DNA of 64,000 nucleotides from assembly GCA_964384945.1 (NCBI GenBank), contig CAYLMK010000001.1, positions 350,710 through 414,709 of the forward strand, in the 5' to 3' direction. Source of the DNA: an uncultured Thermodesulfobacteriota bacterium (GTDB lineage: Bacteria; Desulfobacterota; DSWW01). A model generated the notes under the pieces. It saw only the letters and a list, made by a program, of their open reading frames with translations, made no database searches and had not been told where the DNA came from. This document shows, in pieces, positions 4,976 through 16,967 of the stretch. Each line of letters opens with the position of its first letter. The stretch's first letter is position 1. A program made the position numbers and the translations under genes.

Positions 4976-5184
4976 GGGCGTCCCCCCCCGCGTTCAGCCG
5001 CCGCCGAGAAGACCCGAGAGGATCTGCGGGCCCGGCTTCTTCGCGAGCCCGGGCACGATGGAGGTCCCATTGTGGCAGAACAGATGTGCGGTTGCAAAAA
5101 AGGGCCTGAGGGGGCGGGGCTCGCGCTGCCGGTCCCTGGGCGGACCGGAAATTTAATACATTTTTGTGTTATTCATCTATTATT

Positions 5185-5200
5185 ACAACATTGATGTTGT
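5185..5200. promoter_or_regulatory. Palindrome ACAACAT-TG-ATGTTGT in an AT-rich tract; candidate enhancer (UAS) for glnK-amt
   Basis: Perfect 7-2-7 inverted repeat about 100 bp upstream of a -24/-12-like element; it shares the CRACAT-N2-ATGTYG pattern with the sites upstream of glnA. Confidence 0.55.
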
Positions 5201-5298
5201 TTTCTTCCTTCCCGTTCCGGAGGGACCGATCTCGAGGAGGATCAGAAAATGCATTTGTATCGGCCGATTGCATTTGCCTTCCCTCCCTCTGCCCCCTG

Positions 5299-5314
5299 CG
5301 GCACGGGTCTTGAA
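5299..5314 (+). promoter_or_regulatory. Candidate sigma-54 promoter (CGGCAC-GGGTC-TTGAA) for glnK1-amtB1
   Basis: GG-N10 spacing is correct with GGCACG at -24, but -12 reads TTGA rather than TTGC; ends 47 nt before the ATG. Confidence 0.45.
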
Positions 5315-5361
5315 GAGGGGTGGCGGAGGATCGCAGTAACCAACCGCAAGGAGGAGTCGTT

Positions 5362-5700
5362 ATGAGAAAGGTCGAGGCGATCATCAAGCCGTTCAAGCTG
5401 GAGGACGTGAAAGAAGGCCTCTCCGCGCTTGGGATCAAGGGGATGACCGTGACCGAGGTCAAGGGGTTCGGAAGGCAGAAGGGGCATTCGGAGATCTACC
5501 GGGGGGCGGAATACACGGTCGATTTCGTCCCCAAGGTCAAGATCGAAATCGTCGTGGATGCAGAGATGGTGGACAAGGTCGTAGAGGCCATTCTGAATCA
5601 CGCATCCACCGGAAAGATCGGGGATGGGAAGGTCTTTGTACTGCCCATCGAGGCTGCGCATCGGATCCGAACCAGAGAACATGGCAAAGACGCTATTTGA
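5362..5700 (+). CDS. glnK: Nitrogen regulatory protein P-II (GlnK-like, first gene of glnK-amtB)
   Basis: 112 aa, [25 protein letters not shown]-loop with Tyr51, [11 protein letters not shown]; GGAGGAG RBS; 18 nt upstream of amt. Confidence 0.93.
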
Positions 5701-5718
5701 GGCGGAGGTGAGAGGAAA

Positions 5719-7020
5719 ATGAAAAACAAGCCTGTCGTACTGAGTATTCTCCTTTTCCTTCTGCTGTCGGGCGCAAACGCGGCCGCCCAGGAGGAGCCCA
5801 CCCTGGACACGGGAAACACGGCCTGGATGATCGTTGCGACGGCCCTCGTGATGTTCATGACGCCCGTGGGGCTTGCCCTATTCTACGGAGGAATGTCGCG
5901 GTCCAAGAACCTGCTGAATACCTTTGGGTTGAGTTTCACTTCGTATGTCATCGGGTCTGTGCTGTGGATGGTATGCGGCTACACGCTCGCCTTCGGCCCG
6001 GACCTGGGAGGCGTTCTGGGCAGCCTGTCCCATTTCTTCCTAAACGGCATCGGGGTGGAGGACCTCTCCGGAACGATCCCCACGTTTCTATTCGTCGTGT
6101 TTCAGATGACCTTTGCCGGCATCACGGTCGCGCTGATCAGCGGATCCGTGGTTGAGCGGATGAAATTCTCTTCCTGGCTCGTCTTCGCCGCCCTGTGGCT
6201 GCTCTTTGTCTACTCGCCGGTCTGCCACTGGGTCTGGGGCGGGGGATGGCTGGGTGCCCACGGGGCCCTGGACTTCGCGGGAGGAACCGTGGTGCACGTG
6301 AACGCCGGTGTCTCCGGCCTGGTCCTCGCCCTCATGCTCGGCAAAAGGAGGGGATACGGCAGGGAGCCGATGTTTCCCTCGAGCATTGTGCTGACATCGG
6401 CGGGCGCCGCCATGCTTCTGTTCGGCTGGTTCGGCTTCAACGCGGGCAGTGCACTCGCCTCGGACGGCATCGCCGCGTCCGCGTTCCTGGTCACGAACAC
6501 ATCCGCCTGCATCGGAGCCCTGACCTGGATGTTGGTCGAGTGGATCGTCCGGAAGAAACCGACCCTCCTGGGGCTTGCATCCGGCCTTGTCGCCGGGCTT
6601 GTCGGCATCACACCGGCTGCTGGCTTCGTGGATCTCTCCGGGGCCTTTGTCATCGGGATCGGCTCAGGCATCGTAGGCTATCTTGGCGTGGCCGTCCTCA
6701 AGCCGAAACTGGGATTCGACGACTCCCTGGATGCCTTCGGCGTGCACGGTCTCTGCGGCATCTGGGGCGCCCTTGCCACCGGTGTCTTCGCAAACCCTGC
6801 GATCAACGAAGCGGGTACCGGGTTCCTGTACGGAAACCCCGGGCAGGTCGCGATTCAACTGGTGGGGGTGGCGGCAACCATCGCTTATGCAGCCGTGGCC
6901 ACCTTCGTCCTGGCCTCGATCACCAAGGCGGTTACAGGGGGACTTCGCGTGAGCGATGAAGAGGAGGTCCAGGGACTGGACAGCGCGGCTCACGGCGAAA
7001 GGGCCTTTATGCTGCAGTAG
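5719..7020 (+). CDS. amtB: Ammonium transporter (Amt family), copy 1
   Basis: FYGGM, LDFAGGTVVH, LFGWFGFNAGS, FDDSLDAFGVHG; both conserved His present; N-terminal signal-like peptide. Confidence 0.95.
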   Translation: MKNKPVVLSILLFLLLSGANAAAQEEPTLDTGNTAWMIVATALVMFMTPVGLALFYGGMSRSKNLLNTFGLSFTSYVIGSVLWMVCGYTLAFGPDLGGVLGSLSHFFLNGIGVEDLSGTIPTFLFVVFQMTFAGITVALISGSVVERMKFSSWLVFAALWLLFVYSPVCHWVWGGGWLGAHGALDFAGGTVVHVNAGVSGLVLALMLGKRRGYGREPMFPSSIVLTSAGAAMLLFGWFGFNAGSALASDGIAASAFLVTNTSACIGALTWMLVEWIVRKKPTLLGLASGLVAGLVGITPAAGFVDLSGAFVIGIGSGIVGYLGVAVLKPKLGFDDSLDAFGVHGLCGIWGALATGVFANPAINEAGTGFLYGNPGQVAIQLVGVAATIAYAAVATFVLASITKAVTGGLRVSDEEEVQGLDSAAHGERAFMLQ

Positions 7021-7074
7021 CGGCCCCACGCCTCGGCCTCCCCACAGAAAGGTGAAAGGGAAAAGGGTTGTTTC

Positions 7075-15183: not shown

Positions 15184-15255
15184 ACTCCCCCCCCAAAAAA
15201 AGGAAACGTCCCATCTCTTGAGAAGCCGTGTCGGACATCCATCTGCGGTTGTACG

Positions 15256-15282
15256 GGGGCCAGGGCCCTGATCCCTGGCCCC
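15256..15282. terminator. 10-bp GC stem-loop between glnA and amtB2 (attenuator or RNA-stabilising hairpin rather than a classic terminator)
   Basis: GGGGCCAGGG-7nt-CCCTGGCCCC perfect stem 12 nt after the glnA stop; no U-tract follows on the coding strand. Confidence 0.5.
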
Positions 15283-15294
15283 TGATCCCTTGGG

Positions 15295-16719
15295 TTAGGC
15301 GTCGTAATACAAGGCAAATTCCCAGGGGTGGGGACGAAGGTCGAGGGCCTGCACTTCGTTCTTCATCTTGTAGGAGATCCAGGTCTCGATCACATCCTCG
15401 GTGAAGACATCCCCCTTCAAAAGGTAGGCATTGTCGGCTTCCAGCGCCTTGAGCACTTCCCGCAGGCTTCCGGGCGTCTGCGGGACCTTGGCAAGTTCCT
15501 CCGGAGGAAGGTCGTAGATGTCCTTGTCGAGCGGTTCGCCGGGGTCGATCTTGTTCTGGATGCCGTCGAGTACGGCCATCAGCATGGCGGAGAAGGCGAT
15601 GTACGGGTTGCAGGTCGGGTCCGGACACCGGAATTCGAGGCGCTTCGACTTGGGCGAGGTCGAGTACATCGGAATCCGGATGGCCGCACTCCGGTTGCGC
15701 CGCGAGTAGGCCAGGTTCACCGGCGCCTCGAACCCCGGGACGAGCCGCTTGTAGCTGTTCGTGGTCGGGTTCGTGAAGGCGAGCAGCGAAGGCGCGTGCT
15801 TGAGCAGGCCGCCGATGGCGTAAAGCGCCATGTCCGAAAGACCCGCGTACTTGTCGCCTGCAAACAGGTTCGCCCCCTTCTTCCACAGGGAGATGTGCGT
15901 GTGCATTCCGCTCCCGTTGTCGTTGAAGAGCGGCTTGGGCATGAAGGTCACGGTCTTGTTGTGCCTGCGGGCCGTGTTCTTGACCACGTATTTGTACATC
16001 AGAAGCTTGTCCGCCATCTGCACGAGGGGCAGGAAGCGCATATCGATTTCCGCCTGCCCGCCGGTGGCCACCTCATGGTGCTGCGCCTCGACCCAAATGC
16101 CCATCTTCTCCATGGCGAGCACCATCTCGCTGCGGATGTCCTGCTGGCTGTCCGTGGGAGGAACCGGGAAGTAGCCTTCCTTGTATCGGGGCTTGTACCC
16201 CAGGTTGGGATTCTCCACCCGGCCCGAATTCCACCGACCCTCCATGGAATCGATGTGATAGTATCCCTCCCGCTCGTTCTGATCGAAGCGGATGTCGTCG
16301 AAGATGAAGAACTCGGCCTCCGGGCCGTAGTAGGCTGTGTCCGCGAGGCCCAGGCTTTTGAGATAGTTTTCGGCCTTCCGCGCGATGTTCCGTGGATCCC
16401 GGGTGTAGTCCTCGCCCGTAACCGGGTCGCAGATGTTGCAGATCATGGTCAGGGTCTTGTGGGCCAGGAAGGGATCCAGAAAGGCGGTCTCCGGAACGGG
16501 CTTGACGATCATGTCCGACTCGTTGATCGCCTGCCATCCCCGGATGCTCGATCCGTCGAACCCGAGCCCCTCCTCGAAGGTGCTCTCCTCGATCTCTCGC
16601 GGCGGCACGGAGAAATGCTGCCAGAGACCGGGGAAATCCATGAATCGGAGATCCACCATCTCCACGTTTTCCTGTTTGATGAACTTCACTACATCCGCCG
16701 GGGTTTTGAACTCGCTCAT
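15295..16719 (-). CDS. glnA: Glutamine synthetase type I (GSI-beta, adenylylatable)
   Basis: [59 protein letters not shown]; adenylylation-site Tyr in DKDIYDLP. Confidence 0.97.
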
Positions 16720-16830
16720 CTTGCTTGCTCCTCCATTTCATCGAGTGGCACCGGCCCAGGACCCTCTGCCCTGATCCGTTGTTTTTCCAGGGGGAGGTTC
16801 TCCGCCAACCTGGCCCCCACCCCAGCCAAT

Positions 16831-16846
16831 GGCAATAACCGTGCCA
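16831..16846 (-). promoter_or_regulatory. Sigma-54 (-24/-12) promoter of glnA
   Basis: Minus strand reads TGGCAC-GGTTA-TTGCC, a full match to TGGCAC-N5-TTGC, about 110 nt upstream of the glnA ATG. Confidence 0.88.
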
Positions 16847-16922
16847 GGCGGGCGTTTTCAATTCTCGTATTCAAACCGGCTGGTTCGTGGGGAAAGGGGC
16901 ATTTTCGCGTACGTTACGAAAT

Positions 16923-16967
16923 CGACATAAATGTCGTATTTCTCTCTATCTCTAGACAACAATGTCG
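16923..16967. promoter_or_regulatory. Tandem enhancer-like palindromes upstream of the glnA promoter
   Basis: CGACAT-AA-ATGTCG (16923-16936, perfect) and AGACAA-CA-ATGTCG (16954-16967, 10/12), 31 bp apart, centred near -109 and -140 from the inferred start site. Confidence 0.65.

Follow-up and report, generated by a model that had tools for sequence, protein, structure and literature searches.

Conserved ACA-N4-TGT palindromes upstream of sigma-54 promoters suggest an ammonium-assimilation regulon under a NifA-type one-component activator in Thermodesulfobacteriota

A 64,000-nt stretch of the genome (62% G+C) of an uncultured Thermodesulfobacteriota bacterium (contig CAYLMK010000001.1, positions 350,710 to 414,709; hereafter the window) carries, at 5.1-19.8 kb, a compact cluster of nitrogen-signalling and ammonium-assimilation genes whose control regions share a palindromic motif, the likely target of an activator encoded in the same cluster. 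Gene identities were assigned from Pfam and NCBIfam profile matches. On the plus strand, glnK1 (5362-5700), encoding a PII protein with the T-loop tyrosine in RGAEY, is followed by the ammonium transporter gene amtB1 (5719-7020). The adjacent minus-strand gene (7273-8802) encodes a NifA-family one-component enhancer-binding protein (EBP) of GAF-AAA+-HTH_8 architecture; its open reading frame (ORF) extends to 8856, and homologues begin near the methionine at 8802. Divergent from it lies a third PII gene (9009-9347, plus strand; glnB-like, with an RGAEY T-loop), near which we noted a terminator-like hairpin (9385-9401), and beyond this lies glnE (9405-13226, minus strand), encoding a glutamine synthetase (GS) adenylyltransferase of 1273 aa. 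The remainder of the cluster has the minus-strand order glnD-glnA-amtB2-PII2 (19573-13417), with glnD encoding PII uridylyltransferase (16952-19573), glnA a type I glutamine synthetase (15295-16719), amtB2 (13957-15183) downstream of glnA, and, downstream of amtB2, the gene for PII2, an atypical PII protein of 139 aa (13417-13836). The T-loop tyrosine thus stands in an RGAEY context in two of the three PII proteins of the cluster.

A sequence-only reading of this DNA had proposed that glnA and glnK1-amtB1 share an enhancer of the form CRACAT-N2-ATGTYG. The two promoters do share an enhancer-type motif, and the consensus itself was over-specified. The strict pattern CRACATNNATGTYG matched twice in the window (0.01 expected), and in the loci of the 80 best EBP relatives (71-88% identity; 1.07 Mb) it found almost no matches even at up to one mismatch, being kept by the nearest relative only. 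These relatives are nearly all labelled Thermodesulfobacteriota or 'Deltaproteobacteria' (Syntrophobacteria, Desulfobacterales and the like), together with a few metagenome-assembled genomes labelled otherwise, which places the window in that phylum. Because the strict pattern was nearly matchless there, a looser core was adopted: the orthologous promoters show the true site core to be ACA-N4-TGT, its centre rich in A/T and its flanks variable, and at least three A/T were required in that centre. This loose core occurred seven times in the window, and all seven matches fell within the 1241 bp of intergenic DNA of the nitrogen cluster, compared with 0.032 on average, and never more than 2, in shuffled sequence (an enrichment of >200-fold); none was found in the 8.4 kb of other non-coding DNA or in the coding DNA of the window. 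The genes preceded by sites are glnA, glnK1-amtB1, glnD and glnE, in addition to the divergent region between the EBP and third PII genes. We also scored the window with position weight matrices (PWMs) built from the published Desulfovibrionales sites of the regulators DVUA0143 and DVU1949 (Kazakov et al. 2015, BMC Genomics 16:919; PMC4641369); with the DVUA0143 sites alone, five window sites were the top 5 matches of the 64 kb. Neither TGT-N10-ACA nor TGCACC-N5-GGTGCA-type (NtrC) sites were present in the five control regions of the cluster, which agrees with the earlier view that the motif resembles neither the NifA nor the NtrC site.

Site positions were counted, as centres, from a transcription start site set 25 nt after the GG of the -24 box. 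The perfect sigma-54 promoter that had been assigned to glnA is present (TGGCACGGTTATTGC, 16846..16832, minus strand) and is the sole zero-mismatch match in 64 kb. The two palindromes described upstream of it were likewise recovered, 31 bp apart: a proximal site, CGACATAAATGTCG (16923-16936; centre ~-108), which is the top match of the window to the DVUA0143 PWM at 18.7 bits, and a distal site, AGACAACAATGTCG (16954-16967; centre ~-140), which overlaps the glnD stop codon. At glnK1-amtB1, a promoter scan identified a sigma-54-type promoter on the plus strand (CGGCACGGGTCTTGA, 5299-5313; 8/10, with TTGA as its -12 element), and orthologous glnK1-amtB1 promoters carry TGGCACG-N4-TTGT or TTGA at the same place. 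Its proximal site, CAACATTGATGTTG (5186-5199; centre ~-132), and the weak second site 30 bp further upstream, ATACATTTTTGTGT (5156-5169; centre ~-162; 14.2 bits with the DVUA0143 PWM), stand as the sequence-only reading had them, and in two of the related loci (L003 and L004) a pair of sites stands at the matching -132/-162 to -164.

Several features went beyond that reading, among them the third PII gene. The same scan placed a sigma-54 promoter before glnD (TGGCATGCGGGTTGC, 19640..19626, minus strand; 9/10), preceded by an enhancer site, AAACAAAAATGTAG (19727-19740; centre ~-118; 17.7 bits with the DVUA0143 PWM). Between the EBP and third PII genes, their common control region contains a pair of sites 30 bp apart, namely CTCCAATTTTGTCG (8856-8869; 15.8 bits with the same PWM), one half of which is imperfect, and ACACAAAACTGTTC (8886-8899), which has equivalents in the loci L001-L003. 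Finally, a single and uncertain loose-core match, GGACAAGATTGTCA (13341-13354), lies upstream of glnE, just upstream of a sigma-70-like glnE promoter (TTGTCT-17-TAGAAT, 13321..13293).

Conservation of the motif in orthologous promoters had been set beforehand as a test of the shared-enhancer idea, and across the 80 loci the motif was indeed kept at a fixed distance from the -24/-12 boxes. The pattern ACAWWWWTGT occurred at 123 sites in these loci, 76 of them within 450 bp upstream of the start of glnA, glnK, amtB, glnD or the EBP gene; most of the others lay immediately before the EBP gene. Downstream of the sites, a TGGCAC-N5-TTGC match scoring 8/10 or better was present in 38 of 42 groups. 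The centre of the proximal site fell at -106 to -112 in 26 groups and at -130 to -134 in eight, the latter class being the glnK1-amtB1 type, that of the window included. The distal site stood 30-32 bp upstream of the proximal one; of the 26 pairs within groups, 24 had a spacing of 30-32 bp and two had one of 60-61 bp. For glnD orthologues (12 loci), promoters matching at 9-10/10 were accompanied by sites, with the proximal centre at -108 to -110 in 11 of the 12. This geometry was kept across lineages in which the neighbouring proteins are only ~50% identical and the flanking DNA is unalignable, which argues for selection rather than shared DNA ancestry. The flanks themselves vary: the Desulfobacterales orthologues use TTACAwwwwTGTAA, and the clade of the window has CRACA...TGTYG.

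These results bear on the simplest alternative, namely that the palindromes are non-regulatory, being A/T-rich inverted repeats that arose by chance or small hairpins that serve as terminators, as might be the case at the end of glnD. A terminator scan did flag 16923-16936 on the plus strand, and the proximal glnA site lies only 16 bp past the glnD stop codon. However, the stem measures 5-6 bp with a loop of 2-4 nt, and no T-run follows on the glnD strand; the terminator reading of 16923-16936 was rejected. Together with the excess over shuffled sequence and the retention of both the 30-32 bp spacing and the ~-110 position between such diverged neighbourhoods, this leaves the non-regulatory explanation with a next to negligible probability.

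Like the sites, their conservation, their phasing and their distance to sigma-54 promoters, the domains of the EBP and its gene linkage are directly observed. Pfam matches and sequence inspection confirmed the description of the cluster's activator as a GAF-AAA+-HTH protein without a receiver: it comprises GAF, Sigma54_activat and HTH_8 domains, with a Walker A motif (GESGTGKE) and a GAFTGA motif, and gave no Response_reg match. Over its full length it is ~42% identical to bona fide NifA of Methylococcus, Serratia and Rahnella, and it scored 352.7 bits against the NtrC model TIGR01818 (cut-off 558.6). In the alignment, the GAF and AAA+ parts are NifA-like and the HTH is not: the EBP family has RGNM.KAA....T[EV]RKF.YK where canonical NifA has GW[VI]Q.KAAR.LG.TPRQ..YR, and only A482, A483, T489, R491 and Y495 are common to both. 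No counterpart of the interdomain cysteine motif of rhizobial NifA was seen in the EBP. The protein belongs to the NifA family in the broad sense and does not show three of the defining features of a nif-specific NifA.

Given this ancestry, the protein might bind the sites and yet be the ordinary nif-specific NifA of a diazotroph, co-activating the gln genes while NtrBC remains their main regulator. It passed the cut-off of the NifA equivalog TIGR01817, if narrowly (532.9 vs 528.85 bits), its relatives carry the name 'Nif-specific regulatory protein' in public sources, and the motif equals that predicted at Desulfovibrionales nif promoters, with sites at ~-112/-130 upstream of nifH in Desulfovibrio vulgaris. 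Nevertheless, the TIGR01817 match covers only profile positions 3-439 of 534, and the HTH is non-canonical, unlike that of the NifA-like protein encoded on the D. vulgaris plasmid pDV1. Moreover, neither nifH, nifD nor nifK occurs in the window or within 10 kb of the EBP gene in any of the 80 loci, and all targets seen are assimilation and signalling genes. We regard a nif-specific role as a serious contender, albeit an unlikely one.

What connects the GAF protein to the sites? A sigma-54 promoter requires an EBP, and in-phase sites at -110/-140 are typical of EBP enhancers. About half of the 80 loci have the EBP gene beside glnA, glnK, amtB, glnD or glnE, with at least four different arrangements of the genes, and only two of the 80 have a second EBP gene within 10 kb. 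A strict site was present within 300 bp upstream of their own start in 42 of 75 EBP orthologues, as against 0.71 in dinucleotide shuffles (maximum 4), and many of the remaining orthologues have one-mismatch versions; such sites lie 15-130 bp from the start codon and are also found at loci without a nearby nitrogen gene. The half-sites are TGT/ACA, as for NifA-family proteins. Furthermore, proteins with a T-V/L-R-K-F recognition helix are associated with TTACA/ATACA half-sites (T at position -1 in 115/196), and those with T-E-R-K-F, the window EBP included, with mixed C/G-rich flanks (T at position -1 in 9/28), a suggestive pattern in which helix and flanks appear to change together. Because of this linkage, the own-gene sites, the scarcity of other EBPs, the covariation and the nature of the half-sites, the GAF protein, which had been put forward from the sequence alone, emerges as the best candidate binder.

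A number of points weigh against this assignment or against parts of the regulon. The role of the GAF protein as binder is, like the DVU1949 and DVUA0143 regulons, predicted only. The DVU1949 PWM gave just one window site of at least 10 bits, the glnE site is not conserved in relatives, and neither the EBP/third-PII region nor the sites near the EBP gene come with a recognisable sigma-54 promoter. The covariation of helix and flanks is confounded by phylogeny and includes few T-E-R loci (10), and a site before the EBP gene is equally expected if another regulator controls both the gln genes and the EBP gene. In that event, a different EBP encoded elsewhere, such as an NtrC-type response regulator, would bind the palindromes and the GAF protein gene would be a mere target in a cascade from NtrC to a nifA-like gene. 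An example of such a cascade is the action of NtrC at nifLA in Klebsiella, and the EBP-upstream sites fit it as well as they fit autoregulation. No receiver-domain EBP, NtrB-like kinase or ntrBC pair was found in the 64-kb window, so that the absence of ntrB and ntrC claimed from the sequence holds for this window and does not extend beyond it, where such a pair may lie elsewhere in the genome. In D. vulgaris, moreover, the NtrC-like DVU3220 has been mapped to the amtB-glnK promoter (PMC4641369). Even so, the scarcity of second EBPs near the orthologues, the NifA-like half-sites together with the absence of TGCACC-type sites in the control regions, and flanks that covary with the recognition helix of the GAF protein all make a binder encoded elsewhere distinctly improbable.

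Taking these points together, we consider it likely that the GAF protein binds the palindromes and drives sigma-54 transcription of the ammonium-assimilation genes, although which protein binds, in which direction it regulates and what signal it senses is what we infer. The ACA-N4-TGT palindromes would be the upstream activating sequences (UAS) of a nitrogen-assimilation regulon comprising glnA(-amtB2-PII2), glnK1-amtB1 and glnD, plus the control region of the activator gene and the divergent PII gene. Dimers of the GAF-AAA+-HTH protein (7273-8802) would occupy the sites, which usually form pairs separated by three helical turns, and so on the same face of the DNA, at ~-110/-140 or -132/-162. 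As is established for EBPs in general, dimers bound to two in-phase sites are expected to nucleate a hexamer, and the oligomer would loop to sigma-54 RNA polymerase at the -24/-12 box and open the promoter through ATP hydrolysis. The sites near the EBP start codon most likely serve autoregulation, more likely of a sigma-70 promoter than by way of activation.

The GAF domain of NifA responds to PII or PII-UMP in Azospirillum, Rhodospirillum and Herbaspirillum, and to 2-oxoglutarate in Azotobacter. As in these other NifA proteins, the N-terminal GAF domain of the EBP probably gates its activity by nitrogen status, via PII/PII-UMP and/or 2-oxoglutarate. A putative link between PII and the GAF domain is attractive because the cluster encodes two RGAEY-type PII proteins, glnD is part of the predicted regulon and one PII gene shares the control region of the EBP gene.

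More broadly, ammonium assimilation in much of the Thermodesulfobacteriota (Syntrophobacteria, Desulfobacterales and relatives) could be under the master control of a NifA-derived one-component activator rather than NtrBC, with its GAF domain wired to PII/GlnD, a re-targeted DNA-binding domain (DBD) and a -110/-140 geometry convergent with that of enteric NtrC. We advance this generalization tentatively, as somewhat short of an even chance. If it is true, the widespread label 'nif-specific regulatory protein' would be wrong for this EBP family. Our results suggest that many genes automatically annotated as 'nif-specific NifA' in the phylum are general nitrogen regulators, and such annotations affect the reading of nifA-like metagenome genes as markers of diazotrophy. 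What is known of nitrogen control in sulfate reducers and syntrophs is almost entirely prediction, and the cluster offers a compact, testable locus that combines a single regulator with three PII proteins, GlnD and GlnE, and has rigidly positioned sites at four or five promoters.

Some further observations concern the genes and intergenic regions of the cluster. PII2 (13417-13836) carries the T-loop GQGRQGGIELVGRSGTYHVD in place of ...RGAEY... and a Lys-rich C-terminal tail of ~25 residues, and may not be a GlnD substrate. For amtB2 and PII2 (13417-15183), we found neither an own promoter nor an own enhancer site. Between glnA and amtB2 (~15245-15275) lies a G+C-rich hairpin, GGGGCCAGGG-ATCA-GGGCCCTGGCCCC, without a T-run, which could act as a partial terminator or processing site setting the glnA:amtB2 ratio. 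GlnE is ~300 residues longer than its enteric counterpart, and the extra part gave no Pfam match at E <= 0.001. The leader of the third PII gene (8900-9008) contains a conserved block, CACTTG[CA]AAGAT ... TATGCGAAAA(A)CAC, which also stands upstream of the divergent PII gene in L001-L003; it showed no convincing match to a sigma-54 or sigma-70 promoter and no Rfam family, and an Rfam scan of the entire window returned no RNA family.

Sites in the related loci that could be assigned to none of the above genes lay mostly within coding DNA or beside unrelated genes. In one locus (L017:12860-14615), a site, TAACAAATTTGTAG, stands 118 bp upstream of a gene for a glutamine-dependent NAD+ synthetase, which follows a GS gene whose product is just 41% identical to that of the window glnA. 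Among the unassigned sites, this NAD+ synthetase gene is the only plausible candidate for a further member of the regulon.

The ~50 kb outside the cluster contain housekeeping genes together with a single PAS-type EBP gene (45301-46827, plus strand; PAS-AAA+-HTH), the second EBP gene of the window. Two DUF1302/DUF1329 outer-membrane pairs are encoded at 20537-27054 and 45301-50510. The first lies alongside an RND/MMPL-like ORF of 834 aa (22231-24735, minus strand) and a gene for a BNR-like protein (24695-25882, minus strand), and the second adjoins the PAS-AAA+-HTH sigma-54 activator.

The closest precedents come from D. vulgaris Hildenborough and other Desulfovibrionales; the sigma-54 regulome of D. 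vulgaris was reconstructed by comparative genomics (PMC4641369). There, the one-component EBP DVU1949 was predicted to control a 'nitrogen metabolism and transport' regulon of nine operons, with targets including amtB-glnK (DVU1231-1233), glnA (DVU1258, DVU3392) and glutamate synthase genes; its motif, inferred from autoregulation, has the 16-mer consensus tTtACAwwwwTGTaAa (tabulated here from the published sites), and its sites often occur in pairs 30-41 bp apart (PMC4641369). DVUA0143, encoded on pDV1, was predicted to control nitrogenase operons through the 14-mer CkACAwwwwTGTmG; DVU1949 sites precede DVUA0143 orthologues, suggesting a cascade, and the amtB-glnK promoter is a mapped target of the NtrC-like response regulator DVU3220 alongside the predicted one-component regulator (PMC4641369). 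The novelty implied by the sequence-only reading was thus overstated, since the core motif and the idea had been predicted in 2015 for DVU1949 and DVUA0143 (PMC4641369). Concept and motif are prior art, as predictions only, and we found no experimental test of DVU1949 in the literature searched. The putative regulon of the window is of this already predicted kind and points to no new mechanism, now occurring in other lineages and with its regulator embedded in the gln cluster; our analysis extends the Desulfovibrio prediction to other classes of the phylum and adds a sharply conserved promoter architecture.

Compared by motif, targets and gene context, the window EBP resembles DVU1949 in being a one-component sigma-54 activator associated with an ACA-N4-TGT core before the sigma-54 promoters of glnA and amtB-glnK, and in that the regulator gene, or its operon, is itself preceded by a site (8856-8899 in the window). 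In addition, the TTACAwwwwTGTAA sites of its Desulfobacterales orthologues equal the DVU1949 consensus. It differs in belonging to another class of the phylum, in the flanks of its own clade, which are closer to the DVUA0143 variant, and in gene context, an ior operon there as opposed to a gln cluster and a neighbouring PII gene here. With DVUA0143 it shares the GAF-AAA+-HTH architecture and about 42-43% identity, and the predicted DVUA0143 sites include CGACATTTATGTCG, the exact reverse complement of the window site 16923-16936. However, DVUA0143 is predicted to target nitrogenase operons, has the canonical NifA HTH GWIQHKAARELGLTPRQMGYR, absent from the window EBP, and has sites typically 18-23 bp apart rather than 30-32 bp. 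On pDV1 (L086 16009-16146), the D. vulgaris nifH promoter, TGGCACATCCCTTGC, is preceded by the sites CGACGATTCTGTAG and CTACATTTTTGTAG, whose centres lie at ~-112 and -130. These are 18 bp apart, but the proximal one stands where it does in the gln promoters described above. The product (WP_011176720.1) of another pDV1 gene, at L081:1465-3009, is presumably DVUA0143. In the text copy of Additional file 2 of Kazakov et al. (2015), the DBD encoded by this gene is labelled 'DVU1949'; the first three row labels of the DBD table seem to be rotated, which makes them apparently unreliable.

The better-known nitrogen activators of other bacteria match the system only in part. Canonical proteobacterial NifA has the GAF-AAA+-HTH architecture, the GAFTGA motif and TGT/ACA half-sites in common with the window EBP, at ~42% identity. 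Its UAS is TGT-N10-ACA and its targets are nif genes; neither these nor its HTH motif are matched by the EBP and its sites. At the enteric glnAp2 promoter, Reitzer and Magasanik are said to have described, in 1986, two strong NtrC (NR-I) sites at ~-140 and -108 upstream of the sigma-54 start. The paired sites at ~-110/-140 before sigma-54 glnA and glnK promoters recall this arrangement as a functional trait, not as a sign of membership, as do a predicted regulon containing glnA and glnK-amtB and the likely autoregulation through sites near the regulator's own promoter. Unlike NtrC, the window EBP has no receiver domain, no NtrB kinase gene lies in the cluster, and the site sequence is unrelated to TGCACC-N5-GGTGCA. 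In Geobacter sulfurreducens, master sigma-54 nitrogen regulation by GnfL/GnfM was shown experimentally, with two GnfM sites footprinted at -131..-91 and additional binding over promoters to repress them (Ueki & Lovley 2010, PMC2995071). GnfM differs from the window EBP in being the response regulator of a two-component system, paired with its own kinase, and it resembles it as a sigma-54 master activator of nitrogen genes, the role predicted here, in a related 'deltaproteobacterial' lineage.

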